Under the pieces are notes generated by a model. That model was given only the letters and a program-made list of their open reading frames with translations. It had not been told where the DNA came from and did not search any database. 64,000 nucleotides of DNA from Squalus acanthias (taxonomy: Eukaryota), in assembly GCA_030390025.1 (NCBI GenBank), contig JASTWF010000171.1, positions 496,001 to 560,000 of the forward strand. The letters run 5' to 3'. Positions 1-62,590 of this stretch are shown here, one piece after another. The first letter of the stretch is position 1, and each line of letters begins with the position of its first letter. Position numbers and translations under genes: made by a program.

Positions 1-930
1 AATGTTAGAACAAGTTCAGCCAGGTGGAGGAGGATGCTGTTGGATGTGGACTGATTCGGCCACCGTTCAAGGAATAAGTGGAGGACCCTCAAACCGTCCT
101 GGTGGGGGATGAAGGTGTAGAGGGACTGGACATCCATGGTGAAAAGAAGAGAGTTAGGGCCAGGAAACTGGAAACTGTTAAAGTGGTGGAGGGTGTCAGA
201 AGAGTCGCGGATGTAGGTGGGAAGAAAGTGGACAAGGGGAGAAGAAATAGAGTCCTGATAGGAAAAAATCTGTTCCGTGGGGCAAGAACAGGCTGAAACG
301 ATGGGTCTACCAGGGCAGTCCTGTTTGTGGATCTTGGGAAGGAGGTAGAAGCAAGCTGTGCGGGGTTGGGGACTGTGAGGTTGGAGGCCATGGAGGGAAG
401 ATTTCCAGAGGAGATGAGGTTAGTGACAGACTGGGAAACAATGACGCTCAGCCTCCACAAGGTAGAGGCCAGTTCGTCAAACAACATCAGCGCCACCCTT
501 GTCAGCAGGTTTAATGACTGTAAGGGTTGGACCTGAGGGAACGGAGTGTTGCAAGTTCAGAGGGAGGTAGGTTCGAGTAGATTTGTGAGCAGTGTATTAA
601 AATTGAGACAGCCGACGTCACGCCAGCAGTTCCCAGTGAAAGATCTAGAGAGGGTAAGAGGGCAGAGGGAGGGGTCCAGGTGGAACGAAAATTCTGAAGC
701 TGAGAGATAGTTTCTGCTGTGTGGAGGAAGTCTCCTGGCCAAAGAAGTAGGGGCGAAGGCGATGGAAAAAGAGCTCAGCATCGTGCTGAGCTCGAAATTC
801 ATTGAGGTGGGAGCATAAGGGGAGGAAGCTGAGGCCTTTGCTGTGAACTGATTGTTCGGGATCAGAAAAGTGAATGTCAGAGGTGACATAGTGTTGGACA
901 TCCTGGAGAGATGTATGTTGGACACCTTGG
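1..930 (-). mobile_element. Degenerate Penelope-like retroelement, N-terminal RT region
   Basis: Minus-strand translation gives PGRPIVSACSCPTE and LPTYIRDSSDTLHHFNSFQFPGPNSLLFTMDVQSLYT, typical PLE RT motifs; frameshifted; right boundary approximate. Confidence 0.75.
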
Positions 931-1328
931 GGAGTTATGGGTTAACAGTCAATCTTCTTTGTATCTTGGATTAACAGGCTTCCAGACTTTCCAAGATATA
1001 AGCAGGATGACTGTGAAGTCAAAGAATGCATTGCTTGTTTTTTGAGATGTAAAGTGCTTGTGTAAGGGTATAAGTGCAGGTTATAAAATGTAAACTTTAG
1101 TTTTAGGGTAATAAAACAGGGGTAGCAATCCATTAGATACAGAGAGCAGTTGGTACAGCTTTTACTTCAAAGATGCGAACAGATGTTAAGTCAGGAAGTC
1201 TCGTGTCGGGGAAGTGGTTCTGAGGTTGACAATTGCAAACTGTTAATATAGGTAGTCTGATTTCAAAGTATTTGGGAAATAGATAAATCATACAGCCTTA
1301 TCCACGGCATTATCCTTTAATGTCAAAA

Positions 1329-4600: not shown

Positions 4601-5421
4601 GGATTATAATGTGGATAAATGTGAAGTTATCCACTTTGGTAGAAAAAACAGAAAGGCAGAGTATTTCCTAAATGGTGAAAGATTGGGGAATGCAGATGCT
4701 CAAAGGGTCCTGGGTGTCCTTGTACATGAGTCACTGAAAGTGAATGTGCAGGTGCAGCAAGCCATTAGGAAGGCAAATGGTATGCTGGCCTTCATTACAA
4801 GAGGATTTGAGTACAGGAGTAAAGAAGTCTTACTCCAATTATATAGGGCCTTGGTGAGACCACACCTGGAGTACTGTTTACAATTTTGGTCTCCTTACCT
4901 AAGGAACGTTATACTTGTCATAGAGGGAGTGCAACAAAGGTTCACGAGATTGATTCCTGGGATGGCAGGACTGTCGTATGAGAAGAGATTGAGTAAACTA
5001 GGCCTGTATTCTCTTGAATTCAGAAGAATGAGAGGGGATCTCATTGAAGCATACAACATTATTACAGGGCTTGATAGGGTGGATGCTGGGAGAATGTTTC
5101 CCTTGGCTGGGGAGTCTAGAACCAGGGGCCACAACCTCAGGATAAAGGGTAGGCCATTCAGGACTGAGATGAGAAGAAATTTCTTCAAACAGAGGGTGGT
5201 GAATCTTTGGAATTCTCTACCCCAGAGGGATATGGAGGCTCAGTCATTGGGTATATTCAAAACAGAAGTCGATAGATTTCTGAATAGTAAGGGCATCAAG
5301 GGATATGGTGATATGCCGGTGAATGGAGTTGAGGCAGAAGATCAGCCATGATCTCATTGAATGGCGGAGCAGGCTCGAAGGGCCGAATGGCCTACTGCTG
5401 CTCCTATTTCTTATGTTCTTA
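1696..5421 (+). mobile_element. Near full-length CR1 LINE: 3' part of ORF1 (SGNH esterase) plus ORF2 (APE endonuclease and RT), inactivated
   Basis: ORF1 motif VVVHIGTNDI; ORF2 motifs YLNARS, ITETW, GDFN, SDH, NYRPVSLTS, YLDFQKAFD, GVPQGSVLGP, KFADD; a single TAA at 3651-3653 splits ORF2; CR1 tail cctatttcttatgttctta. Confidence 0.95.
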
Positions 5422-38300: not shown

Positions 38301-41038
38301 ACAGGAGGGAGGGTCAGTGCTGATCTCCCAGCCTGGGACAGACCCACAGGAGGGAGGGTCAGTGCTGAGCTCCCAGCCTGGGACAGGCCCACAGGAGGGA
38401 GGGTCAGTGCTGAGCTCCCAGCCCGGGACAGACCCACTGGAGGAAGGGTCAGTGCTGAACTCCCAGCCTGGGACAAACCCACAGGGGGGAGGGTCAGTGC
38501 TGAGCTCCCAGCCCGGGACAGGTTGGAGTCAGGCTACAGAGAGAGCGGAAGAATTATTAACTTTCAACATGTTCATGTCATCACAGCATTTATCGAGCCG
38601 CTGTATCCTGGGATATTACGGTCCACGGTGGATCCTGGGATATTACGGTCCACGGTGGATCCTGGGATATTACGGTCCACGGTGGATCCTGGGATATTAC
38701 GGTCCACGGTGGATCCTGGGATATTACGGTCCACGGTGGATCCTGGGATATTACGGTCCACGGTGGATCCTGGGATATTACGGTCCACGGTGGATCCTGG
38801 GATATTACGGTCCACGGTGGATCCTGGGATATTACGGTCCACGGTGGATCCTGGGATATTACGGTCCACGGTGGATCCTGGGATATTACGGTCCACGGTG
38901 GATCCTGGGATATTACGGTCCACGGTGGATCCTGGGATATTACGGTCCACGGTGGATCCTGGGATATTACGGTCCACGGTGGATCCTGGGATATTACGGT
39001 CCACGGTGGATCCTGGGATATTACGGTCCACGGTGGATCCTGGGATATTACGGTCCACGGTGGATCCTGGGATATTACGGTCCACGGTGGATCCTGGGAT
39101 ATTACGGTCCACGGTGGATCCTGGGATATTACGGTCCACGGTGGATCCTGGGATATTACGGTCCACGGTGGATCCTGGGATATTACGGTCCACGGTGGAT
39201 CCTGGGATATTACGGTCCACGGTGGATCCTGGGATATTACGGTCCACGGTGGATCCTGGGATATTACGGTCCACGGTGGATCCTGGGATATTACGGTCCA
39301 CGGTGGATCCTGGGATATTACGGTCCACGGTGGATCCTGGGATATTACGGTCCACGGTGGATCCTGGGATATTACGGTCCACGGTGGATCCTGGGATATT
39401 ACGGTCCACGGTGGATCCTGGGATATTACGGTCCACGGTGGATCCTGGGATATTACGGTCCACGGTGGATCCTGGGATATTACGGTCCACGGTGGATCCT
39501 GGGATATTACGGTCCACGGTGGATCCTGGGATATTACGGTCCACGGTGGATCCTGGGATATTACGGTCCACGGTGGATCCTGGGATATTACGGTCCACGG
39601 TGGATCCTGGGATATTACGGTCCACGGTGGATCCTGGGATATTACAGTCCACGGTGGATCCTGGGATATTACTGTCCACGGTGGATCCTGGGATATTACT
39701 GTCCACGGTGGATCCTGGGATATTACTGTCCACGGTGGATTTTGGGATATTACTGTCCACGGTGTATTTTGGGATATTACTGTATGAGGACACGGTGTAT
39801 CCCTGTCTGTCTCTGATTCTCTCACTCTCTCTCTCTCTCTCAGTACCGAAGTCTGAGTCCATGGTCCCTGCTATTGTTGGTGTGATTGGGGTCCTCGGGC
39901 TGCTCATCGCTCTCTCCATTGTAGCTGTCGTCATCTACAGAAAGAAAGGTAGGAAATGGAGACAAAATGGTCGCGTCCCCACTGGGGGAGGGAGGGAGGG
40001 GCCTGGATTGGGAGGAGGGGCCAGGTTGGAGGTGGCGGGGTCCTTTAAGGGGGGGGCAGGGGCCCAGTGTCAGGGGGATGGCCCGGTGGTGGGTGGAAGT
40101 GTACTGGGCTGGAGGGTGAAGGGCCCAGGTGTTGGGGCTCTGAGTGTGGGGGAGGGGCTCTGGGTGAGGCGGCGGGGCTCTGGGTGAGGGCGAGAGGATC
40201 TGGGTGAGGGGGCGGGTCTCTGGGTGAGGTGGCGGGGCTCTGGGTGAGGGGAAGGGGCCCAGGGTGAGGGGCTGGGGCTCTGGGTTAGGGGGGAGGGGCT
40301 CTGGGTGAGGGCGAGAGGATCTGGGGGAGGGGGCGGGGCTGGGGCTCTGGGTGGGCAGAGCCACGTTGGGGGGTGATCCTCTCTCTTCTCTGACTGTCGG
40401 TGTCTCGTCACTCACTGAGCGTTCCTTGTTTTACAGTGGGAGGGAAGAGCGGCTACAATCCTACAACCAGTAAGCTGATCATCAAACATCCTCTGCATCT
40501 CTGGAACACTGAATCGTTGCTCATTCTGTGTCTGATACACTGAACAGTTTATTACTCTGTGTCTCCCTCTGTCTGTCTGGCTCTCTGTCTCTGTCTCTCT
40601 CTCTCTCTCTCTCTGTGACTGTCTNNNNNNNNNNNNNNNNNNNNNNNNNNNNNNNNNNNNNNNNNNNNNNNNNNNNNNNNNNNNNNNNNNNNNNNNNNNN
40701 NNNNNNNNNNNNNNNNNNNNNNNNNNNNNNNNNNNNNNNNNNNNNNNNNNNNNNNNNNNNNNNNNNNNNNNNNNNNNNNNNNNNNNNNNNNNNNNNNNNN
40801 NNNNNNNNNNNNNNNNNNNNNNNNNNNNNNNNNNNTCTCTGTTTCTGGCTCTGTCTCTCACTCTGTGACTGGCTCTGTCTCTCTTTTTCTGGCTCTGTCT
40901 CCCTCCTTCTGTCTCTCTATTTCTCTCTGTCTCGCTCTCTCTCTCTCTATGACAATGAACAGTTTATTAATGCCTGTCCTTCCATTAACAGCTTCTAATC
41001 AAGGGGAATCCTCCTGCAGCTCCTCCGCCAATGCCTGA
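12953..41038 (+). CDS. MHC class I heavy chain gene, probably non-classical (spliced, 7 coding exons, 1032 nt, 343 aa)
   Basis: join(12953-13001,36277-36537,37057-37329,37447-37710,39844-39948,40437-40469,40992-41038) is an uninterrupted ORF with phase-1 GT-AG junctions and class I domain hallmarks. Confidence 0.95.
13002..13423. repeat. 62-bp minisatellite starting at the exon 1 donor, about 6.8 copies
   Basis: Units start at 13002, 13064, 13126, 13188, 13250, 13312, 13376. Confidence 0.95.
13495..14400 (-). mobile_element. CR1 3' fragment in intron 1
   Basis: LHRLGLYSLEYRRLRGNLIEVFK and FYTQRVVEIW; CR1 tail near 13500. Confidence 0.88.
19453..19771 (-). mobile_element. HE1-like V-SINE copy 1 embedded in the minisatellite
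   Basis: Minus strand has a tRNA head (tggcatagtgg, ggtacgaatcc), V-core tgtgtggagtttgcacattctccccgtgtctgcgtgggtttcctccggg and a CR1-type tail (gattctgt)n. Confidence 0.9.
22913..23231 (-). mobile_element. HE1-like V-SINE copy 2
   Basis: Appears identical to copy 1 with the same junctions. Confidence 0.9.
26453..26771 (-). mobile_element. HE1-like V-SINE copy 3
   Basis: Appears identical to copy 1. Confidence 0.9.
28818..29136 (-). mobile_element. HE1-like V-SINE copy 4
   Basis: Appears identical to copy 1. Confidence 0.9.
30785..31103 (-). mobile_element. HE1-like V-SINE copy 5
   Basis: As copy 1 except c>g at 30803. Confidence 0.9.
33148..33466 (-). mobile_element. HE1-like V-SINE copy 6
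   Basis: Appears identical to copy 1. Confidence 0.9.
35608..35926 (-). mobile_element. HE1-like V-SINE copy 7
   Basis: Appears identical to copy 1. Confidence 0.9.
36277..36537 (+). CDS. MHC class I exon 2, alpha1 domain
   Basis: GSHSLRYFLT, GYVDEVQFVMYDSD, EGPESW, RTNQSG (N86 sequon); tttcag acceptor and gtgagt donor. Confidence 0.97.
37057..37329 (+). CDS. MHC class I exon 3, alpha2 domain
   Basis: GIHTYQVMIGCDL, WDGRDLISFD, YLEVECIEWLRKYL with the C101-C164 pair. Confidence 0.97.
37315..37389. repeat. 25-bp repeat x3 spanning the exon 3 donor
   Basis: ggggactgagagtgggYgagtgagg at 25-bp period. Confidence 0.9.
37447..37710 (+). CDS. MHC class I exon 4, alpha3 Ig C1 domain
   Basis: LFCVVTGFYPQAIEVTLWRDG, LPNHDSTYQ, YSCQVEHSGL. 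Confidence 0.97.
37740..38522. repeat. 45-bp minisatellite in intron 4, about 17 copies, with a 181-bp 4-mer higher-order unit
   Basis: cccagcctgggacagacccacaggagggagggtcagtgctgagct; ORF starts recur at 37775, 37956, 38137. Confidence 0.95.
38605..39803. repeat. 27-bp VNTR in intron 4 (atcctgggatattacggtccacggtgg), about 38 perfect plus about 6 degenerate copies
   Basis: Directly visible. Confidence 0.98.
39844..39948 (+). CDS. MHC class I exon 5, connecting peptide and transmembrane helix
   Basis: VPKSESMVPAIVGVIGVLGLLIALSIVAVVIYRKK; (ct)n-cag acceptor and gtagga donor. Confidence 0.95.
40150..40352. repeat. G-rich degenerate tandem repeat (ggggctctgggtgagg) in intron 5
   Basis: About 9 imperfect copies of ~21-23 bp. 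Confidence 0.8.
40437..40469 (+). CDS. MHC class I exon 6, cytoplasmic (VGGKSGYNPTT)
   Basis: 33-nt exon with the conserved class I tail Tyr; ttacag acceptor and gtaagc donor. Confidence 0.88.
40625..40835. other. Assembly gap (211 N) within a CT-rich microsatellite in intron 6
   Basis: Run of N. Confidence 1.
40992..41038 (+). CDS. MHC class I exon 7, Ser-rich cytoplasmic end and stop (TSNQGESSCSSSANA*)
   Basis: Acceptor ttaacag; TGA followed by G|gtatga donor. Confidence 0.85.
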
Positions 41039-43200: not shown

Positions 43201-44634
43201 CTGTCTCTGTCTGCACACTCCTCAGTTCAAAACTAATGAACCTGTATTGGGGAAAATTGAGTGTTTTAAGGATGAAGCTACCAGGTATCCAGGGGAAGAG
43301 GAAATAATAACAGTAAATAAGTTGCAAGCACAGATTTCAAAAGGGAAGATCGTGCTTGCCAAAGCTCACAGCATTCTTTGGGGAGGTGACAGACATGGTG
43401 ATGGGGAAATGCAGTGAATGTGGGGCACATGGACTTTAGGAAAGCCTTTGACAAGGTGCCACACGGGGGGGTTATTGGAGAAGATTAAATGAGTACTTTG
43501 CATCTGTCTTCACAAAAGAAGGCTTTAGCCGGACCGCAATGTCCTTGTACCATACCAGCCCGGCATTTCAGATTAGGACCTAGAATGCAGGAAGCTGACC
43601 ACAATTAACCTTCAAGACCCTGTCCAGCTCCACCTCCCCAAGCAGTGGTTCCTGCCTTTGATGGCCCACCACAGATCTGGGTGGGTGTGTCATTTCCAGT
43701 ACTTCCATGTGGAAGTGAATCAGTCTGGGTACTTGGTTGAGGGGAGGCACATATAAACTAAATGGGACCATTTTAAAGGAGGCGCAGGAACAGAGAGACC
43801 TGGGGGTGTATCTGCACAAATCGCTGAAGGTGGCAGGACAATTTGAGAAGGCTGCTTAAAAAAGCCTAAGGGCTCCTGGGTTTTACAGTGTCAGCCACAG
43901 CTCAGTGGGCACCCTTGCCCCTCAGTCAGAAGGCAGTGGGTTCAAGTCCCACTCTAGCACTAAAATCTAGGCTGACACTCCAGTGAGAAGGTGAGCCAGT
44001 GTTCAAAGAGTGTTCCATCTTGTATTTAATAACTGAGATGCGAGAAAACTGATTGTGTAATTCTATACAGATTTCACAGTGGGAACAGAGTCTGGATCAC
44101 AGGAACAGGCCTTTCAGCCCAACTGGTCTATGTTGGCATTTGTACTCCACACGAGCCTCCTCCCACCACTCTTCATCTAACCCGATCAGCATATCCTTCT
44201 ATTCCTTTCGCCCTCGTGCTTATCGAGCCAGCCCTTAACTGTCAGCTGTGGCTCAGTTGGTAGCACCCTCGCCGCTGAGTCAGAAGGTTGTGGGTTTAAG
44301 TCCCGCTCCAGGGACTTGAGCACAAAAATCGAGACTGACACTCCAGTGCAGTGCTGAGGGAGTGCTGCACTGTCGGAGGTGCCGTCCTTCGGATGAGACG
44401 TTAAACTGAGTCTACTCTCTCAGGTGGACGTAAAAGATCCCATGGCACTATTTCGAAGAAGAGCAGGGGAGTTATCCCCGGTGTCCTGGCCAATATTTAT
44501 CCCTCAATCAACATCACTAAAAAACACAAATGATCTGGCCATTATCACATTGCTGTTTGTGGGAGCTTGCTGTGCATATATTGGCTGCCACGTTTCCCTA
44601 CATTATAACAGCAACCACACTTCAAAAGTACTTA

Positions 44635-45447
44635 AATAACAACAGAAAATGCTGGAAGCACTCAGCAGGCCAGGCAGCATCCGTGGAGACAGAAACAGAG
44701 TTAACGTTTCAGGTCTGGGATCCTTCATCAGAACTGGAAAAGGCTGGAGATGCAACCGGTTTTAAGCAGGGGCAGAGGCAGGGAAAGGGGGCGGGGCGGG
44801 GAGGAAGGAACATTCTGTGCGAGGGTAGGAGGCAGGAGACATTCAATGTTGCAGATGGGGATGGCAGAATCATACAGCCTAAAAAATGGGGGCAGGGGTT
44901 ATAGTCTGAAATTGTTAAACTCAATGTTGAGTCCAGAAGGCTGTAAAGTGCCTAATCGAAAGATGAGATCCTGTTCCTCGAGCTTAGTTGAGCTTCATTG
45001 GAACAGTGTAAGAGGCTGAGGACAGAGAGATCAGAGTGGGAGTGGAGCGGAGAATTAAAGTGACAGGCGACCGGAAGCTCGGGGTCACCCTTACAGACTA
45101 AACGGAGGTGTTCCGCAAAGCAGTCACCCAATCTGCGTTTGGTCTCCCCAATGTAGAGGAGACCGCATCGTGAGCAGTGAATGCAGTATATTAAATTGCA
45201 AGAAGTACAAGTAAATCGTTGTTTCACCTGGAAGGCGTGTTTGGGGCCCTGGACAGTGGGAAGGGAGGAGGTAAAAGGGCAGGTGTTGCATCTCCTGCGC
45301 TTGCACGGGAAGGTGCCGGGAGAAGGGGAAGGGCTGTTGGGAGTGATTGAGGAGTGAACCAGAGTGTCGCGGAGGGAGCGATCCCTTCGGAATGCTGATT
45401 GCGGAGGTGAGGGGAAGATGCGTTTGGTGGGGGGATCATGTTGGAGG
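44635..45447 (-). mobile_element. Penelope-like element 3' end (GIY-YIG endonuclease and 3'UTR) with 8-bp TSD agtactta
   Basis: NLIYCIHCSRCGLLYIGETKRRLGD; TSD at 44627-44634 and 45448-45455. Confidence 0.88.
44699..44735 (-). ncRNA. Minimal type I hammerhead ribozyme motif
   Basis: agtt-CTGATGA-agg(atcccaga)cct-GAAA-cg-TT-aact: intact core, stems I and II, palindromic ACGT stem III. Confidence 0.75.
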
Positions 45448-46399
45448 AGTACTTATTTGGCTGTAAAGCGCTTTGGGATGTCCTGCGGTCGTGAAAGGCT
45501 CAGTATTGCAAGTCTTTTTTTAATAAATAGAGGCAAAGAGTTCAAAAGCAAGGACGTTATGCTAAACGTTTATAAAACACTGGTTAGGACACAGCTGGAG
45601 TATATTGTCTAATTCTGGGCACCACACTCGTGGAAGGATGTCAAGGCCTTGGAGAGGGTGCAGAGGAGATTTACTGGAATAGTACCAGGGATGAGGGACT
45701 TCAGCAACGTGGAGATCTCGGAGAAGCTGAATCACCTGCAATGGCTTCTCTTCCTGCTCCCGCACCATAACCTCTGGAGTGCCCTAAGGATCTATCCTTC
45801 GCCCCCTCCTATTTCTCACCTACCTCTTTGATAAAGCTTTTGGTTATCTTTCCTAATATCTCCTTATGTAGCTCGCTGTCAAATTTTGTTTGATAACGCT
45901 CCTGTGAAGCACCTTCCCATCTCCACCCCAATTACTTTCTCCACCGAGATCAACACTGTTTATAGTCAGTCCGTAAGGGTGACCCCGAGCTTCTGGTCGC
46001 CTATCAGTTTAATTCTCCGCTCCACTCCCACTCAGACCTCACCCTCTTACACTGTTCCAAGGAAGCTCAACGTAAACTCGAGGAACAGCATCTCATCTTT
46101 CGATTAGGCACTTCACAGCCATCTGGACTCAACACAGAGTTCAACAATTTCAGACCATAACCTCGGCCCCTATTCCTTTTTTTTCTCCATTCATTTCATT
46201 TATTATATATATTTTTCTCTCTCCCCCACATGGCAGCTGTCTTTCATTCTGTGCCATTTGCCCTTCATCGAGAGCCAGAATTGACCTGCACTCTTCACAC
46301 CACAGACTTTGTTTGTGAATTGTCCACGCCTACAAGAAGGTCAAGTATCAAACTGGCCTCAATCACTCCAGGATCAGGATATCCATCGTGTTCCGGGGA

Positions 46400-47109: not shown

Positions 47110-47463
47110 CCACAGGGAGCACAGACTCCCAAAATTACCCCTCACGAATTCTCCCTCCCATCCTCAAACTGTGAGGATCCACTATTCAATGGCCCCCATG
47201 CCCACCTCTTGCATTATACACCTCAAAGTCTCCCTTCTCTTTATATCAAGCAGTGTGTCTCCCTCCTACTTTGGCGGTGAGTGGCAGCTTCAGGCAATGG
47301 TTTTGGGATACGGCAGGGATATTACAGTCCTCTGTTCTGAAACCAGTCTATACCCTGTAATAGAAAGGGGTGTCAGCAGCAATAATCAGTGATATCATCA
47401 GGGGTGTCAGATTCAGGGACCATCGGAGCAATAATTGGAGGAGACATCATGGGCAATAATGGG

Positions 47464-47610
47464 GTAAAGCTCCCTCTACACTGTCCCATCAAACACTCCC
47501 AGGTCAGGTATTGCACGAGTTAGGTACAGAGTAAAGGTCCCTCTACACTGTCCCATTAAACACTCCCAGGTCAGGTATTGCACGAGTTAGGTACAGAGTA
47601 AAGCTCTCTC
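47464..47610. repeat. 67-bp satellite monomers (gtaaagctccctctacactgtcccatcaaacactcccaggNcaggtacagcacgggttagatacaga)
   Basis: 67-bp period from 47464 to 47531. Confidence 0.85.
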
Positions 47611-48454
47611 TCAATTGGTTCACCAAGCACAGCCACCTCAGATACAGAATGTGTTAAAAGCAGCATACAGCTCCCTTTACACTACCCAATGAAGCACACC
47701 AGCTCAGGTACAGCATGGGATTGATACTGAATAAAAATCCCTCTACACGGAGGTGTCCAGCATTCCCAGGTGAGGTCTGGGCAAGGTTTATATACGAGTT
47801 GAGCTCCGGTCAACTTGCTGCATCAAAGGGTGAGCTTGATGGTAGATGTTGAACAGCTCCCAGTAGCTGGTTAGACTCTCACTTTGACAAAATCCTGGAC
47901 TGATGGGATTCCCAGTAGAGCTCCTTACCTTTCCAAACATTGTTGAAGCTTCCCGTTTTATCCCATCTCCGACACTGGAGGTCTTGTCCCACCAGATCTG
48001 CTCTGTGAACCCAGTGACATTTCTCCAGCCCAGTTAGTGTGGTGATGATTCGACTTCTCTCTCTCCAGGTTCCTGAGATATTGCTCACTCCAAGAAACTT
48101 GTAATATAAAAAAGATAAATATTAATTCTAGAATCTGTAACTGGAATACAGTGGGACTGTTTCTGGGACTATGATTAGTTCAATATATTTGCAATTAATG
48201 ACATTTGGTTGAATTACTTACTTGACTATTAAATTGTTCTTTTCTTTCTTTCCCCTTATTTATATTGACTAAACTCACTCTCCATATCTGCTGCCAACTC
48301 CATCTCCTCCCACAGTGAAATGCCACTGATGGTGTATAACCAGGGGCGTAAACCTGTCTCCAGGTGACATCACAAAGGAGCCAGAAGCCAATAACAGCAG
48401 CAGCCAGGTACGATGTCACAAAGCAGCCCAAGCCCCTCCCAGTCGAGGTAATCC

Positions 48455-48855
48455 CAGGGCAGGTACAGCACGGGTTAGATACAGAGTAAAGCTCCCTCTA
48501 CACTGTCCCATCAAACACTCTCTGGTCAGGTATCGCACAGGTTAGGTATAGTGTAAATATCCCTCTACACTGTACCATCATACACGCTCAGGTGAGGTAT
48601 AGCACAGGTTAGATACAGAGTAAAGCTCCTTCTTCATTGTCGCAACTAGCACTGGCAAGTGACATCTAGTACAGTTAGGATACAAAGTAAAGCTCCCTCT
48701 ACACTGTCTCATCAAACACTCACAGGTCAGGTATAGCAGGAGTTAGATACAGAGTAAAGCTCCCTCTCCATGATCCCATCAAACACTCACAGGTCAGCTA
48801 TAGCAGGAGTTAGATACAGAGTAAAGCTCCCTCTGCATGGTCCCATTAAACACTT
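48455..48855. repeat. 67-bp satellite array, left of the CR1 insertion
   Basis: About 6 diverged monomers. Confidence 0.88.
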
Positions 48856-51800
48856 TTACATCATTAAACTAATGAAGTGGGGGTGGGAGGATTCAGGAAA
48901 GATTAAATTTAAAAGCAGCAAGAGAAATATCAAGGCTCTAAAGCAGAGTTTTGGGTAAAAATAAGCAGAGTGGGTCAGGAAGGGAGAGAGAGAGTAACAA
49001 AGGTAATAAGGCATCAGTGACTAAGGTGACATCAGGGAAACAAAGAAATGTCAAATCTAAAGGCACTATATCTGAATGTGCAAAGTATTCGCAACAAAAT
49101 AGATGTATTAATAGAGCAGATAGAAATTAACAGGTGTGATCTAATAGCCAAAACGGAGACGTGGCTACAAAGTGGCCAAGGTTGGGAACTAAATATTCCA
49201 GGATACTTCACTTTTAGAAGAGATAGGCAAAATTGAAAAGGAGGAGGGGTAGCCCTGATAATAGAAACATAGAAACATAGAAAATAGGTACAGGAGTAGA
49301 CCATTCGGTCCTTCGAGCCTGCACCGCCATTCAATGCGTTCATGGCTGAACATGCTACCTCAGTACCCCATTCCTGCTTTCTCGCCATACCCCTTGATCC
49401 CCTTAGTTGTGAGTGTTATATCTAACTCCCTTTTGAATATATTTAGCGAACTGGCCTCAACAACCTTCTGTGGAAGAGAATTCCATAGATTCACCACTCT
49501 CTGGGTGAAGAAGTTCCTCCTCAGCTCAGTCCTAAATGGCTTCCCCTTAATCCTTAGACTGTGACCCCTGGTTCTAGTTTTCCCTACCATTGGGAACATT
49601 CTGCCCGCATCTAATTTGTCTAAACCAGTCAGGATTTTAAATGTCTCTATAAGATCCCCCCTCATTCTTCTGAACTCCAGAGGATACAAGTTCAGTTGAC
49701 CCAATCTTTCTTGATATGTCAGTCCGGCCATCCCAGGAATCAATCTAGTGAACCTTCGCTGCACTCCCTCAATAGCAAGAATGTCCTTCCTTAAGTTAGG
49801 AGACCAAAACTGCGCACAATACTCCAGGTGTGGCCTCACCAAGGCCCTGTACAACTGTAGCATCACCTCCCTACTCCTGTACTCAAATCCCCTTGCTATG
49901 AAGGCCATCATTCCGTTTGCTTTCTTGACTGCCTGCTGCACTTGCATTCCCACCTTCAGTGACTGATGTACCATGACGCCCAGGTCTCGTTGCACGTCCC
50001 CTTTCCCTAATCTGCCACCATTCAGGTAATAGTCCGCCTCTCTATTTTTACCACCAAAGTGGATAACCTCACATTTATCCACATTGTACTTCATCTGCCA
50101 TACATTTGCCCATTCACCCAACCTGTCCAAGTCACTCTGTAGCCTCCTCGCATCCTCCTCATTGTTCACACTGCCTCCCAATTTAGTGTCATCCGCAAAT
50201 TTGGAGATATTACATTTAATCCCTTCGTCCAAATCATTAATATATAATGTAAACAGCTGGGGTCCCAGCACCGAACCCTGCGGTACCCCGCAGAGGGTAG
50301 GGCAGAGTATAAATCAGGAAATTACAGGCGCATGTAACAAGGGTAATACAGTGATCATGGGGGACTTTAATCTACATATAGACTGGGCAAACCAAATTTG
50401 CAGTAATAGTGTGGCGGACGAATTAATGGAATGTATGCAAGATAGTTTTCTAGATCAGTATGTTAAGGAACCAACTAGGGAACAGGCTGTTTTAGATCTA
50501 GTATTGTGCAATGAGAAAGGGTTAGTTAATAACCTTGTAGTAAAGGGGCCTTTAGGGAAGAGTGACCATGACATGATAGAATTTTAAATTGAGTTTGAAA
50601 GTGATTTAGTTAAATCTGAAACTAGGGTCTTAAATCTAAACAAAGCAAACTATGTCGGTATGAGGGGCGAGTTGGCTACGGTAGATTGGGAAACTACATT
50701 AAAAGGTATGATGGTAGACAAACAATGGCTAGCATTTAACGAATTAATACATAATTTACATCAAATATACATTTCTTTAGGGCACAAAAACCCCACAGGA
50801 AAAGTGGTCCAACCGTAGCCAACAAGAGAAGTTAAAGATAGTATTAGATCAAAGGAAGAGGCTTATAATGCTGCCAAAAGAATAGTCAGCCTGAGGATTG
50901 GGAGGATTTTAGAATTTAGCAAAGGAGGACCAAGAAATTGATAAAGAAAGGGAAAATAGAATATGAGAGTAAACTAGAGAGAGACATAAAAACAGACTGT
51001 AAAAGCTTCTATAGGTATGTTAAAAGGAAAAGATTAGCGAAAGTAAATGTGGGTCCCTTACAGGCTGAGACAGGAGAAGTTATAATGGCGAATAAGGAAA
51101 TGGCAGAGAAATTAAACAAATACTTTGTGTTAGTCTTTACAGAAGATGATGCAAAAAACTTCCCGGAAATAGTGGAGAACCAAGGCTCTAGCGAGAATGA
51201 GGAACTGAAAGAAATTAGTATTAGTAAAAAAATAGTACTGGAGAAATTAATGGGACTGAAAGCCGATAAATCCCCAGGACCTGATGGCCGACATCCTAGG
51301 GTTTTGAAAGAGGTGGCTACAGAGATAGTGGATGCATTGGTTGTCATTTTCCAGAATTCTATAGATTCTGGAACTTTTCCTGCAGATTGGAAGGTAGCAA
51401 ATGTAACCCCACTATTTAAGAAAGGAGGGAGAGGGAAAACAGGGAACTACAGACCAGTTAGCCTGACATCAGTAGTAGGGAAAATGCTAAAATCTATTAT
51501 TAAGGAAGTGGTAACAGGGCACTTAGAAAATAATAATAGGATTGGGTAGAGTCAACACGGATTTATGAAAGAGAAATCGTGTTTGACAAATCTGTTAGCA
51601 TTTTTTGAGGTTGTAACTAGCAGAATAGATAAGGGGGAACCAGTGGATGTGGTGTATTTGGATTTTCAGAAGGCATTCGATCGGGTGCCACACAAGAGAT
51701 TATTAAACAAAATTAGGGCTCATGGGATTGGGGGTAATATACTAGCATGGACTGAGGATTGGTTAACGGACAGAAAACAGAGAGTAGGAATAAACGGGTC

Positions 51801-52842
51801 ATTTTCGGGTTGGCAGGCTGTAACTAGTGGGGTACCGCAAGGATCAGTGCTTGGGCCTCAGCTATTCACAATCTACATCAAAGATTTGGATGAGGGGACC
51901 ATATGTAATATATCCAAGTTTGCTGATGATACAAAGCTGGGTGGGAATGTAAGTTGTGAGGAGGATGCAAGGAGGCTTCAAGGGGATATAGACAGGCTAA
52001 GTGAGTGGGCTAGAACATGGCAAATGGAATATAATGTGGAGAAATATGAAGTTATCCACTTTGGTAGGAAAAATAAAAAAGCAGAATATTGTTTAAATGG
52101 AGAGAGATTGGGAAATGTTGGTGTTCAGAGGGACCTGGGTGTCCTTGTACACGAATCACTGAAAGTTAACATGCAGGTACAGCAAGCAATTAGGAAAGCA
52201 AATGGTATATTGGCCTTTATTACAAGAGGATTTGAGTATAAGAGTAAAGACGTCTTACTGCAATTATATTGGGCCCTGGTGAGACCACACCTGGAGTATT
52301 GTGTACAGTTTTGGTCTCCTTACCTAAGGAAGGATATACTTGCCATAGAGGGAGTGCAACGAAGATTCACCAGACTGGTTCCTGGGATAGGGGGATCGTT
52401 CCTATGAGGAGAGATGGAGCAGACGAGGCCTATATTCTCTAGAGTTTAGAAGAATGAGAGGTGATCTCATTGAAACATACAAAATTCTTACAGGGTTTGT
52501 CAGGGTAGATGCAGGGAGGATGTTTCCCCTGGCTGGGGAGTCCAGAACCAGGGGTCACAGTCTCAGAATAAGGGTCGTCCATTTAGGACTGAGAGGAGGA
52601 GAAATTTCTTCACTCAGAGGGTGGTGAATCTTTGGAATTCTCTACCCCAGAGGGCTGTGGAGGCTCAGTCATTGAGTATATTCAAGACAGAGATCCATAG
52701 ATTTTTGAATATTAAGGGAATCAAGGGATATGGGGATAGGGCAGGAAAGTGGAGATGAGGTAGAAGATCAGCCATGATCTTATTAAATGGCGGAGCAGGC
52801 TCGAAGGGCTGAATGGCCTCCTCCTCCTCCTATTTCTTGTGC
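48856..52842 (+). mobile_element. CR1 LINE ORF2 (APE and RT), same family as 1696-5421, multiple stops, interrupted by an antisense CR1
   Basis: LKALYLNVQS, GDFN, SDH, NYRPVSLTS, GVPQGSVLGP, KFADD and a 3' tail at 52790-52842. Confidence 0.93.
49261..50290 (-). mobile_element. Young 5'-truncated CR1 nested antisense in the previous element
   Basis: Open 303-aa RT C-terminus (49360-50271) and (atagaaac)n tail. Confidence 0.93.
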
Positions 52843-53151
52843 ATAGCATGGGTTAGATGTAGAGTAAAGCACCCATCAAACACTCCCAGGTCAGGTATAG
52901 CACAGGTTAGATACAGAGTAAATATCCCTCAACACTGTCCCATCAAATACTCCCAGGACAGGTGAAGCATGGGTTAGATACAGAGTAAGGGTCCCTCTAC
53001 ACTGTCCCATCAAACACTCCCAGGACAGGTGAAGCATGGGTTAGATATGGCGTAAATTTCTGTCTACACTGTCCGATCAAAAATTCTCAGGTCAGGTATA
53101 GCACGGGTTAGAACAGTGTAAAGTTCCCTGTACACTGTCCTATCAAATAGT
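52843..53151. repeat. 67-bp satellite array, continued
   Basis: About 4.5 monomers. Confidence 0.88.
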
Positions 53152-55587
53152 GAGAGGTCGCACAACACCAGGTTATGGTCCAACAGTTTTATTTGAAATC
53201 ACAAGCTTTTGGAGCTATCGATTGCTCCTTCCTCAGGTGAAGTAAATTAGATACAGAATCGCCAAAGCATATATAGATAGAAAACAAAGCATGTGCACTT
53301 TACAATTGCAGACCAATAAATTAAATCATCCTGACTATCTGCCGAGGTGTGATAAAGTTAATTAAGTCAGCCAGGAAGGTACCACATCAAAGACATAGCA
53401 AGATACAACTGAGACAATGAGGTGTAGTCGCAGGGGTTCTAACGTGTCAAAAGCTGCCGTCTGTATGTAAAACGAAAAGCTTTAAAAAAAATTTACTTTT
53501 TTACTGGGAAAATTTTTACTTTTTTACTGGGAATCACATCTGTGAACAAGCTAACAACGACTCGAGTCCGGATCACGTCATGTATCGTGACATAAACCCA
53601 AGATCCCGATTGAGACCGTCTTCATGAGTGCGGAACTTGGCCATCAGTTTCTGCTCGATGATTTTGCGTTGTCGTGTGTTTCTAAGGTTGCCTTGGAGAA
53701 CGCTTACCCGCAGATCCGAGGCTGAATGTCCTTGACTGCTGAAGTGTTCCCCGACTGGGAGGTAACAATCCTGCCTGGCGATTGTTGCGCGGTGCTCGTT
53801 CATACGTTGTCTCAGTGTCTGCATGGTCTCGCCGATGTACCATGCCGAGGCCAACGTTGTCTACCTCATACGTTGCAGGAAAGAACTTGACCACAATGTC
53901 TTCACCTTCGACAACCATTTTTTTACCCAAACACACGGAACAGCCATGGGGACCAAATTCGCACCCCAATACGCCAACATCTTCATGCACAAGTTCGAGC
54001 AAGACTTATTCGCTGCACAGGACCTCCAGCCAACGCTGTACACCAGATACATCGACGACATTTTCTTCCTTTGGACCCATGGCGAAGGATCACTGAAAAG
54101 ACTACACGATAACATAAACAAGTTCCATCCCACCATCAAACTCACCATGGACTACTCCTCAGAATCGGTCTCATTCCTGGACACACGAATCTCCATCAAA
54201 GACGGACACCTCAGCACTTCACTCTACCGCAAGCCCACGGACAACCTCACGATGCTCCACTTCTCCAGCTTCCACCCTAACCATGTTAAAGAAGCCATCC
54301 CCTATGGACAAGCCCTGCGAATACACAGGATCTGCTCAGACGAGGAGGAACGCGATGGACACCTACGGACGCTGAAAAACACCCTCGTAAGAACGGGATA
54401 TGACGCTCGACTCATCGATCGACAGTTCCGACGGGCCACAGCGAAAAATCGCATAGACCTCCTCAGAAGGCAAACACGGGACACAACCAACAGGGTACCC
54501 TACGTCGTCCAGTACTTCCCCGGAGCGGAGAAACTACGCCATGTTCTTCGCAGCCTTCAACATGTCATCGATGACGACAAACACCTCGCTAAGGCCATCC
54601 CCACGCCTCCACTACTTGCCTTCAAACAGCCGCCTAACCTCAGAAGTACCATCGTTCGCAGCAAATTACCCAGCTTTCAGGATAACAGCGACCACGACAC
54701 CACACAACCCTGCCATGGCAAACTCTGCAAGACATGCCAGATCATCAACACAGATACCACCATCACACGTGAGGACACTACCCACCAGGTACATGGTACA
54801 TACTCATGTGACTCGGCCAACGTTGTCTACCTCATACGTTGCAGGAAAGAATGCACCGCGGCATGGTACATCGGCGAGACCATGCAGACACTGAGACAAC
54901 GTATGAACGAGCACCGCGCAACAATCGCCAGGCAGGATTGTTACCTCCCAGTCGGGGAACACTTCAGCAGTCAAGGACATTCAGCCTCGGATCTGCGGGC
55001 AAGCGTTCTCCAAGGCAACCTTAGAAACACACGACAACGCAAAATCATCGAGCAGAAACTGATAGCCAAGTTCCGCACTCATGAAGACGGTCTCAATCGG
55101 GATCTTGGGTTTATGTCACGATACATGACGTGATCCGGACTCGAGTCGTCGTTAGCTTGTTCACAGATGTGATTCCCAGTAAAAAAGTAAAAATTTTCCT
55201 AGTAAAAATTTTTTAAAGCTTTTCGTTTTACATACAGACGGCAGCTTTTGACACGTTAGAACCCCTGCGACTACACCTCATTGTCTCAGTTGTATCTTGC
55301 TATGTCTTTGATGTGGTACCTTCCTGGCTGACTTAATTAACTTTATCACACCTCGGCAGATAGTCAGGATGATTTAATTTATTGGTCTGCAATTGTAAAG
55401 TACACATGCTTTGTTTTCTATCTATATAAGCTTTGGCGATTCTGTATCTAATTTACTTCACCTGAGGAAGGAGCAATCGATAGCTCCGAAAGCTTGTGAT
55501 TTCAAATAAAACTGTTGGACTATAACCTGGTGTTGTGCGACCTCTCAATTTTGTCCACCCCAGTCCAACACCGGCATCTCCGCATCA
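53152..55587 (+). mobile_element. Young Penelope-like element with an inverted 3' duplication and 12-bp TSD ctatcaaatagt
   Basis: Open reading 53886-55133 with GTAMGTKFAPQYAN, RYIDD and VVYLIRC/WYIGET (GIY-YIG); 53152-53847 is the reverse complement of 54859-55546; TSD at 53140-53151 and 55588-55599. Confidence 0.95.
55458..55499 (+). ncRNA. Minimal hammerhead ribozyme in the Penelope 3' end
   Basis: tcac-CTGAGGA-a-ggagc(aatcgata)gctcc-GAAA-gc-TT-gtga. Confidence 0.75.
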
Positions 55588-56269
55588 CTATCAAATAGTC
55601 CCAGGGAAGGTACAGCATGTGTTAGATACAGAGAATATCTCCGTCTACACTGTCCCATCAAAAATTCCCAGGTCAGGTGCAGCACGGGTTAGATACAGTG
55701 TAAAGCACCCTGTACACAGTCGCATGAAACACTCCCCAGTCAGGTATCGCACAGGTTAGGTATAGTGTAAATATCCCTCTACACTGAACCATCATACACG
55801 CTCAGGTGAGGTATAGCACAGGTAAGATACAAAGTAAAGTTCTCTCTGCAGCATCTAAATCAAACACTCCCAAGTCAGGTACAGCCTGGGTTAGATCAGA
55901 GTATAGCTCCCTCTACACTGTCCCATCAAACACTTCCAAGTCGGGTATAGCACGGGTTAGCTACAGAGTAAAGCTCCCTCTACACTGTCCCACCATACAG
56001 TCCCAGTGCAGGTATAGCACAGGTTAGATACGGCGTAGATTTCGGTCTACACTGTCCCATCAAAAATTCTCAGGTCAGGTATAGCAAGGGTTAGAACAGT
56101 GTAAGGTTCCCTGTACACAGTCCCATCAAACAATCCCAGGGCAGGTACAGCACAGGTTAGATAAAGAGTAAAGCTCCCTCTATACAGTCCTATCAAATAC
56201 TCCCAGGTCAGCTATAGCACGGGTTAGGTATAGTGTAAATAACCCTCTAACACTGTCCTATCAAACAGT
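55588..56269. repeat. 67-bp satellite array, continued
   Basis: About 10 monomers. Confidence 0.88.
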
Positions 56270-56731
56270 TTTGAGAGGTCGCACAACACCAGGTTATAGT
56301 CCAACAGTTTTATTTTAAATCACAAGCTTTCGGAGTTACAACTCCTTCGTCGGGTGAAGTGAGGAGATACAGAATCGTCAAAGCATATATAGATAGAGAA
56401 CAATGCATGTGTAACTTACAATTGCAGACATCTAAATTCAATCATCCTGACTGTTTATCTGCCGAGGTGTGATAAAGTTAATCAGGTCAGCCAGGAAGGT
56501 ACCACATCAAAGACATAGCAACGGCAGATAAACAGTCAGGATGATTGAATTTAGATGTCTGCAATTGTAAGTTACACATGCTTTGACGATTCTGTATCTC
56601 CTCACTTCACCCGACGAAGGAGTTGTAACTCCGAAAGCTTGTGATTTAAAATAAACTGTTGGACTATAACCTGGTGTTGTGCGACCTCTCAATTTTGTCC
56701 ACCCCAGTCCAACACCGGCATCTCCGCATCA
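56270..56731. mobile_element. Non-coding palindromic mini-Penelope with 12-bp TSD ctatcaaacagt and a hammerhead-like motif in each arm
   Basis: About 56271-56460 is inverted relative to 56525-56692; TSD at 56258-56269 and 56732-56743; motifs at 56320-56357 (-) and 56607-56644 (+) with core CCGACGA. Confidence 0.88.
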
Positions 56732-56990
56732 CTATCAAACAGTCCCAGGGAAGGTACAGCACGGGTTAGATGCAGAGTAAAGCTCCCTCTACATCGTTGC
56801 ATCAATAACTCTCCAGGTCAGGTAGAGCACGGGTTAGATAGAGTGAAAAGATCCCACTACACAGTCCCATCAAACTGTTCCAGGGCAGGTACAGCACGGG
56901 TTGAATACAGAGTGAAGCTCCCTCTACACTGTCCCATCAAACAGTCGCAGAGCACGGGTTAGATACAGAGTAAAGCTCCCTCTAAAATTA
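56732..56990. repeat. 67-bp satellite array, end
   Basis: About 4 monomers. Confidence 0.85.
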
Positions 56991-58600
56991 GTTCACCAAG
57001 AACAGCCAACTCAGATACAGAATGTGTTCAGTGCAGTGTACAGCTCCCTTTACACTACCCAATGAAGCACACCAGCTCAGGCACAGCATGGGATCAATAC
57101 AGAATAAAAATCCCTCTACATGTAGGTGTCAAACACTCCCAGGTGAGGTGCGGGCAAGGTTTATGTACGAGGTAAGCTCCGGTCAAATGCCGCATCAAAG
57201 TCCAAGCCTTATGACAGATGTTGAACAGCTCCCAGTATCTGGTTAGACTCTCAGCTCTGAATCCTGAACTAATGGGATTCTCAGTAGAGTTCCTTACCTT
57301 TCCAATCATTGGAGAAGCTTCCCGTTTTATCCTGTCATCGACACTGGAGGTCTTGTCCCACCAGATCTGCTCTGTGAACCCAGTGACATTTCTCCAGTTC
57401 CAGTTAGTGTGGTGATGATTCGACTTCTCTCTCTCCACCTTCCAGAAATATTGCTCACTCAAGAAACTGGTAATATAAAAATGATTATTAATTTTACAAT
57501 CTGTAACTGGAATACAGTGGGACTGTTTTTGTGACTATGATCAGTTCAATATATTTACAATTAATGGCATTTGGTTGAATTACTTACTTTACTGTTAAAT
57601 TGTTCTTTTCTTTCCTTCCCCTATTTACAGGGACTAAACTCACTCGCCAGACTGCTGCCGACTCCAGCTCCTCCCACAGTGACATCCCGCTGATGTGTAA
57701 CCAGGGGCGTAAACCTGTCTCCAGGTGACATCACAAAGGAGCCACAAGCCAATCACAACAGCAGCCAGGAACGATGTCACAAAGCAGCCCAAGCCCCTCC
57801 CAGTCCATGTATTACCAGGTCACATGACCACACCCTGCTCCTGGTGTACAGTCTCACTGGGCATGATCGCAGGTTGTACAATCAGTCCGGTCTCCGAACC
57901 CGCTCCCATGTACTGAGACACCAGGCAGGGAGCACAGACTCCCAAAATTACCCCTTACGAATTCTCCCTCCCATTCTCCAAATATGAGGACCCACGATTC
58001 AATGGCCCCCATGTCCACCTCTTGCTTTATACTCTTCCAAGTCTCCCCTCTCTTTATATCAGGCACCGTGCCTCCCAACAGCTTCGACAGTGAGAATCAA
58101 TTTGAGAGAATGGTGTTGGGATAAGGCAGGGGTTAAGCAACCTCTGTTTTCTGAAACAGTCTATTCTCTGTAACAGGTACAGGCGTCAAAAGCCGTAAGA
58201 GGAGCGATCATCGGGGTTATCAAGTGTTGGGACCATCAGAGAAATAATTGGAGAGGACATCATGGGCAATCATGAGATAGCTCCCTCTACACTGTCCCAT
58301 CAAACACTCCCAGGTCAGGTACAGCATGGGTTGGATACAGTCTAAAAGCTCTCTCTAAATTGGTTCACCAAGCACAGCCAAAGTTTACATACAAGTTAAG
58401 CTTCGGTCAACTGGCTGCATCAAAGGCTATGCCTGATGGCAGATGTTGAACAGCTCCCAGTAGCTGGTTAGACTCTCACCTCAGCAAAACCCTGGACTAA
58501 TGGGATTCTCAGTAGAGTTCCTCACCTTTACAATTATTGTTGAAGCTTCCTGTTTTATCCCGTCTCCGACACTGGGGGTCTTGTCCCACCAGATCTGCTG
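56950..58600. repeat. Diverged local duplication of 47113-48445 in permuted order
   Basis: 56950-57805 matches 47580-48445; 57926-58320 matches 47113-47510; 58320-58598 is a third partial copy. Confidence 0.85.
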
Positions 58601-61142: not shown

Positions 61143-61456
61143 GCACTGTCAGAGGGGCAGTACTGAGGGAGCACTGCACTGTCAGATGGGCAGTACTGAG
61201 GAAGAGCTGCACTGTCGGAGGGGGCAGTACTGAGGGAGCACTGCACTGTCAGATGGGCAGTACTGAGGGAGAGCTGCACTGTCAGAGGGGCAGTACTGAG
61301 GGAGCGCTGCACTGTCAGAGGGGCAGTACTGAGGGAGAGCTGCACTGTCGGAGAGGCAGTACTGAGGGAGCGATGCCCTGTCAGAGGGGCAGTACTGAGG
61401 GAGTGCTGCACTGTCAGAGGGGCAGTACTGAGGGAGCGCTGCACTGTCAGAGGGGC
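61143..61456. repeat. 33-bp minisatellite derived from a SINE segment, about 9.5 copies
   Basis: gcactgtcagaggggcagtactgagggagcact resembles 44348-44382 of the DeuSINE. Confidence 0.88.
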
Positions 61457-61459
61457 TGT

Positions 61460-62590
61460 ATCATAGAATAGAATCACAGAGTAGAACATCACAGAAGGCG
61501 GCCATTCGGTCCATCGAGTCTGCACTGGCTCTTTCAAAGAGGAATCGAGTTAGTCCCACTGCCCCGCTCGCACCCCATATCCCTGCAATTTTTTCTCCTC
61601 AAGGATTAATCCAGTTCCCTTTTGAAGGCTACAATGAATCTGTATCCACCATCCTTACAGGCAGAGCAATCCAAATCCTAACCACACGTTACATAAAAAT
61701 GTTTTTGCTCATGTCGCCTCTGGTTCTTTTGCCAATCACCTTAAATCTGTGCCCTCTCGTGATCGAGCCTTCAGCCATTGGAAACTAAAAACAAAAGAAT
61801 TAGGAGCAGGTGTAAGCCATACGACCCCTCGAGCCTGCTCCGCCATTCAATGAGATCATGGCTGATCTTCAATCTCAACTCCACTTCCCTGCCGGATCCC
61901 CATATCCCTTCATTCCCCTGGAGTCCAAAAAATCTATCTCAGCCTTAAATACACTCAATAACTCAGCATCCACAGCCCATTGGAGTAGAGAATTCCAAAG
62001 ATTCACAACCCTCTGAGTGAAGAAATTCCTCCTCATCTCAGTCTTAAATGGCCGACCCCTTATCCTGAGACTATTCCCCCTAGTTCTAGACTCGCCAGCC
62101 AGGGGAAACAACCTCTCAGCACTGTTTCTCTTTATTTACTCCATCTAAATCCTTCACGCTTTTAAACACCTCCATCAAATCTCCTCTTAGCCTTCTCTGC
62201 TCCAAGGAGAACAACCCAGCTTCTCTAGTCTGTCCCCGGAACTGTAATCCCTCATCCCTGGAACCATTATAGTAAATCTCTCCACCCTCTCCAAAGCCGT
62301 CATGTCCTTCCAAAAGTGTGGTGCTCAGAATTGGACACAAGCTGGGGCCGAACTAGCGTTTTATACAGGTTTGGCAGAACTTCCTGGCTTTTGTACTCTC
62401 TGCCTCTATTTATGAGGCCCAGGATCCCATGTGGTTTATTAACTGCTGTGTTAACCTGTCCTGCCACCTTCAAAGATTTGTGCACAAGTACCCCCAGGTC
62501 TCTCTGTTCTTGTACTCCATTTAAAATTGTACTGTTTAGTGTGTATGGTCTCTCCTCATTCTTCCTACCAAAATGTATCACCTCACACTT
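61460..62590 (-). mobile_element. CR1 3' fragment with a second CR1 3' end nested at about 61790-62115
   Basis: Two CR1 tails; EMRRNFFTQRVVNLWNSL and CEVIHFGRKN. Confidence 0.82.

Follow-up and report, generated by a model that had tools for sequence, protein, structure and literature searches.

Two Penelope-like insertions at one position of a 67-bp satellite in Squalus acanthias, and their possible choice of a short DNA motif

Does a Penelope-like element (PLE) that encodes its own endonuclease choose a particular DNA sequence for insertion, and, if so, what part of that sequence does it read? The question is raised by a 64,000-nucleotide stretch of Squalus acanthias DNA (GenBank assembly GCA_030390025.1, contig JASTWF010000171.1, positions 496,001 to 560,000; the whole stretch is called the window, and positions are those of the window, forward strand unless marked), in which two PLEs, element 1 (53152-55587) and element 2 (56270-56731), interrupt a 67-bp tandem repeat. 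The initial annotation of this DNA proposed that the two had inserted independently, at the equivalent site, by a GIY-YIG endonuclease preferring this satellite. We found that independent insertion by a GIY-YIG PLE at the same sequence is borne out by the alignment of the element arms, by a base within the duplications, by a ribozyme stem, by the coding region and by the flanks. The results suggest, however, that what the nuclease prefers is not the repeat in its entirety but a specific DNA motif, possibly a symmetric one.

Two insertions at the same nucleotide of the repeat

The 67-bp array lies to the left of element 1 (52843-53139), between the elements (55600-56257) and to the right of element 2 (56744-57199), where it degenerates distally. 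The last monomer of the left array (from 53103) is the left half of T1, the target monomer of element 1; in the middle array are an unoccupied paralogue of T1 (56086-56151) and, from 56219, the left half of T2, the target of element 2. Each element is enclosed by a 12-bp direct duplication, CTATCAAATAGT for element 1 (left copy 53140-53151, right copy 55588-55599) and CTATCAAACAGT for element 2 (56258-56269 and 56732-56743), with a GC content of 33-42%. The left copies of both duplications are preceded by ACACTGTC and the right copies followed by CCCAGGGAAGGTACAGCA. The final T of duplication 1 also fits element 1, so that its stagger is 11 or 12 nt, and element 2 has additional T residues at the equivalent junction. 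Sequence comparison thus confirms the elements, the 12-bp duplications, the common flanks and the common 3' end described initially.

This arrangement is real and non-random. Given that the satellite is hit, the chance of the same phase and orientation is 1 in 134, and for a hit anywhere in the window it is about 2.8e-4. T1 and T2 share four non-majority bases near the cut (carried individually by 3, 5, 6 and 2 of 23 monomers) that occur all together in no other monomer; the chance that both insertions fall in the only two such monomers is 1 in 253, for variants chosen post hoc. The comparison covers 23 aligned monomers of the approximately 34 monomer-lengths in the window, partial and degenerate monomers being excluded. 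A 23-nt pattern of the site, with up to 3 mismatches allowed, has three matches in the window (the two right junctions and an empty monomer at 56123) and none in 100 shuffles.

Both elements have a pseudo-LTR (pLTR; LTR, long terminal repeat), an inverted 5' copy of it and a tail at one end only, the tail being 41 nt, against 30-40 bp usual for the class. Element 1 consists, in 5' to 3' order, of an inverted arm of about 700 nt (53152-53850, reverse strand; the reverse complement of 54856-55546, that is, the 3' end of the open reading frame (ORF) and the pLTR, with no tail), a 37-nt exact forward copy of 54815-54851 (53849-53885), a 5'-truncated ORF (53886-55133), the 3' pLTR (55134-55546) and the tail (55547-55587). 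The source of the 37-nt copy ends 4 nt from the stop of the inverted arm, and the copy, situated at the inversion junction, may be a template switch that bridged the two complementary DNAs (cDNAs). Element 2 has an inverted pLTR arm of 251 nt (56270-56521, reverse strand) and a forward piece of 210 nt (56522-56731), a 5'-truncated pLTR with a 22-nt deletion bounded by ATGC repeats and with the same tail as element 1. The inverted arms of the two elements start identically, 39-41 nt inside the 3' end, and the two elements do not differ in their last 79 nt.

The initial annotation regarded element 2 as a non-coding derivative and the common 3' end as a sign of targeting, and neither view is supported. 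A truncated forward piece with an inverted arm is an ordinary form of these elements (PMC8557442, PMC3846280; papers are cited throughout for the portions available to us), and element 2 is an ordinary 5'-truncated copy that needs no special status. It is present once in the window, with arms inverted rather than in tandem, and from one copy a non-autonomous family cannot be shown. The common end is the standard tail at the start of reverse transcription (PMC11167929), expected of any two members of a family.

The ORF of element 1 is open over 415 aa, from midway through the reverse transcriptase (RT) domain to a stop at 55133. It contains RT motifs with YIDD (54048-54059), the thumb, a linker C276-x4-C281-x2-C284 (54711-54737) and, after the linker, a GIY-YIG nuclease (54822-54875) with the catalytic R, E and N and a CCHH set, of which C319 and C323 lie between VVY and YIG and are joined by H343 and H359 (at least 90% conserved in 79 sequences). 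Of 66 highly conserved columns 2 deviate, the median for homologues being 1 (n=56). Pfam found RVT_1 (E 3e-5) and GIY-YIG (E 9e-4), with both hits under their curated cut-offs. The predicted fold (mean confidence score pLDDT 89.6) has I-TevI (E 0.11) and telomerase (E 0.13) as its best matches, none being below E 0.001; the model of the nuclease domain resembles I-TevI with a TM-score of 0.80 over the target (E 0.11). A search by sequence with the element 1 protein matched no solved PLE structure, the best matches being a retron RT and a group II intron RT.

By sequence, both elements are endonuclease-containing PLEs of Neptune type, from a family present in several shark genera, the clade being assigned by linker and domain order. 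A single ORF with RT and, at the C-terminal end, a GIY-YIG nuclease, here truncated at its 5' end, is the layout of endonuclease-containing PLEs. The CX2-5CxxC linker is common to Neptune, Nematis and Naiad, and the C-terminal position of the nuclease excludes Naiad. The ORF matches predicted proteins of Heptranchias perlo with 86-94% identity and those of Scyliorhinus, Mustelus, Chiloscyllium and Hemiscyllium with 70-85%, and a full-length relative, P0002, at 65%. Relatives lie on at least seven Heptranchias perlo scaffolds of differing length. Three shark gene models (P0205, P0133 and P0146) join pieces of the family ORF to other sequence, as in P0205 of Mustelus asterias, named NOXP20-like, where the piece is fused to a host gene; judged from such models, family copies lie within or beside genes. 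The many scaffolds and the host-gene fusions together suggest dispersal of the family.

A hammerhead-like core with stem II and helix I is predicted, by pattern search and folding only, in all four arms. In the forward arm of element 1 it is a minimal type I motif (55457-55499; core CUGAGGA, 5-bp stem II, GAAA and a palindromic AGCU in place of helix III), an architecture described in PMC4209133; the motif in the left arm (53199-53241, reverse strand) has A for G (G12) in the GAAA core. In both motifs of element 2 (56320-56358, reverse strand, core CCGACGA; and 56606-56644) C replaces the conserved U4 and loop II is shorter, indicating that the source copy had that variant. An Rfam scan of 53000-57000 gave no matches, hammerheads included, and a hairpin in the tail folded no better than shuffles (z -0.22).

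Independence of the two insertions

The two insertions are very likely independent events. Within element 1 the arms mismatch at 4 of 307 aligned pLTR columns (the whole 700-nt arm having 9 substitutions and one 8-nt indel) and within element 2 at none of 172, the right arm having one 22-nt and one 1-nt deletion, whereas arms of different elements mismatch at 18-24 positions in 165-248 columns (8.7-12.1%). In a four-way alignment of 165 ungapped columns, 17 are specific to an element and none to an arm, and a further 4 occur in just one arm of element 1; element-specific changes common to both arms of an element also include three indels. These counts support the initial observation that the arms match within each element and differ between elements, stem II of the ribozyme included. 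Where stem II of element 1 pairs C with G, that of element 2 pairs U with A; the difference is compensatory and suggests that selection acted on active source copies. The duplications differ at position 9, where both copies around element 1 have T and both copies around element 2 have C.

The 969 nt of the element 1 ORF that are present in single copy look young, with a CpG observed/expected ratio of 0.92, compared with 0.32 for the window. In a simulation of ORF decay (2000 runs of a simple model with assumed rates), the frame stayed open at 4.5% in 2% of runs with indels and in 19% without, and at 0.65% in 54-78%.

The initial annotation had named duplication of a single insertion as what would refute independence, and the comparison of flanks did not bear this out. 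T1 and T2 differ at 8 of 33 columns upstream, compared with 1 of 35 around and after the cut. Only 4 of the 253 monomer pairs, T1/T2 included, are as close in those 35 columns, and among the four T1/T2 have the most divergent upstream halves. T1 is closest to the empty monomer at 56086 (7/66 differences), the upstream half of T2 has 3 differences to its nearest monomers, compared with 8 when set against T1, and the monomers neighbouring T1 and T2 differ from each other at 16/67 and 16/68, equal to the median of the monomer set. The distances to nearest monomers and neighbours indicate that the T1 and T2 flanks are not paralogous.

Other origins of the shared flanks were rejected. Block duplication was discarded because, when the left flank of element 1 is matched in register, its best counterpart (52875-53147 to 55859-56130, 86%) ends at an empty monomer two monomers before element 2. 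Conversion of the flanks after insertion conflicts with position 9, which differs despite its location between the end of the element and the outer variants, and 3' transduction of a satellite patch with the left copies, which bear the same variant bases.

The target sequence and how it may be chosen

None of the 21 other aligned monomers carries an insertion, and both hits are in the rare variant patch, so the variant sequence, rather than the satellite as such, is the likely target; a preference for this satellite, as first proposed, is too broad. If the duplication is read as 11 bp, its core is symmetric, CTRT-N3-AYAG. The symmetry is created by two of the four variant bases. The outer pairs are symmetric in 4 of 4 cases in T1 (a score reached by 0.35% of 20,989 background 11-mers) and in 3 of 4 in T2 (5%), and in 1 of 4 in the majority monomer, as in 15 of the 23 monomers; for this scoring the monomers were cut at a fixed offset, which leaves monomers D1 and D3 out of register. 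The 64 kb contain three pre-insertion sites of the motif (T1, T2 and 61456), two of them occupied.

That the cleavage is selective in some way, whether through a symmetric motif, a long site or help from RNA, we consider probable. Among such models our preference, held with a confidence little above even, is for a nuclease selective for the short symmetric motif CTRT-N3-AYAG, with the insertions being independent. Two different source copies of one shark Neptune-type family would have inserted separately by target-primed reverse transcription. The nuclease would pick a short motif that the majority 67-bp monomer lacks and that two variant monomers supply, the satellite being a local source of the motif and not a dedicated niche. 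A dimer would nick each strand just 3' of AYAG, giving a stagger of 11-12 nt. One nick would prime cDNA synthesis at an outer start site, producing the forward copy with its 41-nt tail, the other at an inner start site, producing the inverted arm without the tail, and the two cDNAs would be joined where each stops; element 2 would then be the outcome of both cDNAs ending within the pLTR. The anatomy, the signs of independence, the variant patch and the counts of the motif are observed, whereas the cleavage positions, the action as a dimer and symmetry as the feature that is read are inferred.

Several observations weigh against this model. There are only two events, at near-identical sites that amount to effectively one target, and the motif was defined from them, post hoc. 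The symmetry requires an 11-bp stagger, which the junction of element 1 permits but does not prove. Two of the shared variants are outside the symmetric core and are better explained by a longer site, though they may have come along with the core in one conversion tract. The third motif site (61456-61466, at the start of a short ATAG-containing run) is empty, as is monomer C9 (56152-56218), which has 3 of 4 symmetric pairs. As regards independence, the shared flank patch hugs the junctions, and identity of the last 79 nt is improbable under uniform divergence (7e-4 or less); we read this identity as constraint on the initiation region, but end-to-end conversion would look alike. The flanks of no other copy were recovered by four indirect searches. 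A 31-aa translation of the tail region had no matches among 1.84 billion protein representatives, and residues 1-42 of the junction-spanning frame gave no candidate among proteins of 57-184 aa. The 19-nt tail pattern occurred at 7 loci of bacterial and archaeal genomes, with matches of only 19-26 nt, attributable to chance, and comparison of 240 proteins with translated pLTR, tail and satellite yielded nothing convincing (8 weak matches, 30-50% identity). The protein matches come with no flank information, so the dispersal of the family is also compatible with dispersed satellite arrays as its sites.

The most substantial competitor of the short motif is a long site of 20-35 bp read by the nuclease together with the Zn-finger linker, the family or a subfamily being specialized on the 67-bp variant. 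Phase, orientation and duplication length are identical in the two insertions, the shared patch reaches about 18 bp past the duplication, one of its bases being absent from all other monomers, the nuclease domain has a fold like that of I-TevI (homing GIY-YIG enzymes read long sites), and the linker has been proposed to direct targeting to repeats (PMC8557442). An element dedicated to the satellite would, however, be expected in the common monomer, and yet the 21 others are free of it; the family occurs in several shark genera, on many scaffolds and in fusions with host genes; and single variants recur patchily, so that the outer ones could travel with the core in one conversion tract. We therefore regard the long site as a serious but doubtful explanation. 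Similarly tentative is a stronger version, base-precise recognition like that of a homing endonuclease, with a 20-35-bp site around a symmetric core, which two or more subfamilies would share and which would be concentrated in a tandem repeat of the shark. Help from RNA, in which the pLTR segment 55316-55333, antisense to the right flank, would aid the choice of site, or the site would mimic a cut site in the element's own pLTR, has the slimmest chance of the models considered here. The antisense match spans the two outer variant bases and was reached by 32 and 54 of 1000 dinucleotide shuffles, and nicking of the own pLTR is reported for other PLEs (PMC11167929), but the match is marginal and post hoc, two empty monomers outscore it (21 versus 20), and the anole element initiated in vitro with no homology to the cleaved DNA (PMC11167929). 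A same-strand likeness between pLTR and duplication (6-8 nt), which seemed to track the T/C variant, was dropped, as it was not allele-specific (20/19 for both targets).

An alternative to selective cleavage would be one insertion whose short flanks were copied to a second monomer by unequal exchange, with subsequent loss of the middle of element 2 and homogenization of the arms of each copy by conversion. The shared patch starts no more than about 10 bp from the left junction and tails off about 18 bp past the right one, as a conversion tract might, the terminal 79 nt are identical and a single deletion could convert the first structure to the second. This course of events would, however, require that 17 substitutions and 3 indels became fixed in both arms, that the two direct copies of one duplication, 2.4 kb apart, underwent the same change, that stem II acquired a compensatory change although the DNA was dead, that the left junction was altered and that the ORF retained both its frame and its CpGs; in addition, the putative deletion has no microhomology. 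We consider it unlikely. Very unlikely, too, is coincidence, or an accessible region combined with only a weak preference for nicking AT-rich DNA: a genome scan led to the choice of this window, and insertions are dense in the region, but the two events agree to the base in phase, orientation and stagger, and in variant class, with the chances given above.

Relation to known elements and the surrounding repeats

Inverted truncated copies and 30-40-bp tails are standard for PLEs (PMC8557442), and the elements described here are in most respects an ordinary shark Neptune-type family. They share with the Neptune clade (PMC8557442) the RT followed by a C-terminal GIY-YIG nuclease, the linker, the CCHH set, the pLTR hammerhead, 5' truncation, the inverted arm and the tail. 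A bias towards microsatellites is already known for Neptune, Naiad, Chlamys and Hydra elements, with the linker proposed as its cause (PMC8557442). This bias is a tendency of the Neptune clade and not a strict rule, and microsatellites often hide duplications (PMC8557442); in contrast, neither of the two insertions here is in a microsatellite, and both have clean 11-12-bp duplications in a complex 67-bp variant. The initial remark that strict target specificity is not the norm for endonuclease-containing PLEs needs dividing: target bias was known, but a base-precise complex target was not among the reports we saw on nuclease-bearing elements. Indeed, we found in the literature neither such an element with a base-precise complex-repeat target nor this 67-bp repeat, in a full-text search that did not extend to most subscription papers, supplements, Repbase or Dfam; the portions available of PMC12602865, PMC8869645 and PMC12910113 contain nothing on Penelope targets.

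The anatomy of an arm plus a tail has a counterpart in PAc, a Poseidon element of Anolis carolinensis, which nicks and extends both strands, with two adjacent RT start sites defining the tail, and for which a dimer was modelled (PMC11167929). Priming on both strands from two start sites would account for the anatomy seen here. PAc, however, belongs to the Poseidon clade and prefers a 3-nt ATT in AT-rich DNA, in the one in vitro system (PMC11167929), whereas the site described here has 33-42% GC and recurs to the base. The dimer surface of PAc is in the N-terminal part (PMC11167929), which the ORF of element 1 lacks. Pen2/Pen2a of Adineta vaga resembles our elements in inverted pLTRs, a 31-bp tail, 8-10-bp duplications and truncated derivatives flanked by inverted pLTRs, but a recurrent target is not reported in the available text (PMC3846280). 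Non-LTR retrozymes (bioRxiv 10.64898/2026.07.22.740005) likewise have non-coding pLTR-related sequence with a type I hammerhead; their units are, however, in head-to-tail tandem, whereas element 2 consists of a single inverted pair within a duplication.

PLE-X of Selaginella is known to insert precisely at one position of a target present in many copies, 28S ribosomal DNA (PMC8557442). PLE-X is nuclease-less and its target is a conserved gene, whereas here a nuclease is present and the target is a variant of a variable repeat. As in R2-like elements, independent insertions occur at the same nucleotide of a repeat (both copies in the window), but the target is not the common conserved form, given the four shared non-majority positions and the absence of insertions from the other 21 monomers. 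How PLEs choose targets and how their inverted ends form were named as open questions in PMC8557442. With two independent insertions, both bounded by clean duplications, a single complex site becomes a concrete candidate substrate, for which our model predicts symmetric nicks 11-12 nt apart. Should a short motif be what is read, this would add something useful, if modest, to what is known of a common shark family. Should a long site be read, the element would join the R2-like site-specific retrotransposons, with a compact single-ORF enzyme; and homing-like recognition of 20-35 bp would be the first that we found described in this class, offering a natural substrate on which two-strand priming by a nuclease dimer could be reconstituted.

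Other PLE sequences are present in the window. A second, distant family is represented at 44627-45455 by a nuclease-coding fragment (44955-45450, reverse strand; about 30% identity to P0002), situated between two copies of AGTACTTA (44627-44634 and 45448-45455), an 8-bp duplication that contains a 6-bp palindrome. The fragment is outside the 67-bp satellite, indicating that the target preference is not general to the class. It lies inside a repeat resembling a short interspersed nuclear element (SINE), which we take to be a shark SINE. A related inverted piece is found at 45968-46174 (87%). An N-terminal RT fragment of another PLE (3-965, reverse strand; 28-38% identity to reference proteins) is frameshifted and cut by the window edge.

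The window as a whole is repeat-rich vertebrate DNA with numerous tandem arrays, and its single N gap (40625-40835) is distant from both insertions. The 67-bp arrays are parts of a longer unit of about 1-1.4 kb that occurs three times (47113-48461, 56847-57822 and 57926-58599), with 87% identity between 47466-48461 and 56847-57822 and with degenerate monomers shading into non-repeat sequence. Between two 67-bp arrays, at 48855-52842, are RT sequences resembling long interspersed nuclear elements, presumably of CR1 type, which may have split one array; in a self-comparison of the window, 50297-52841 is 85% identical to 2871-5415. Elsewhere, an array of 20.8 kb (14764-35609) with 43-45-bp units has a strong strand skew and sub-arrays of 37- and 57-bp units that recur at intervals, suggesting a higher-order repeat with a period of about 2 kb.

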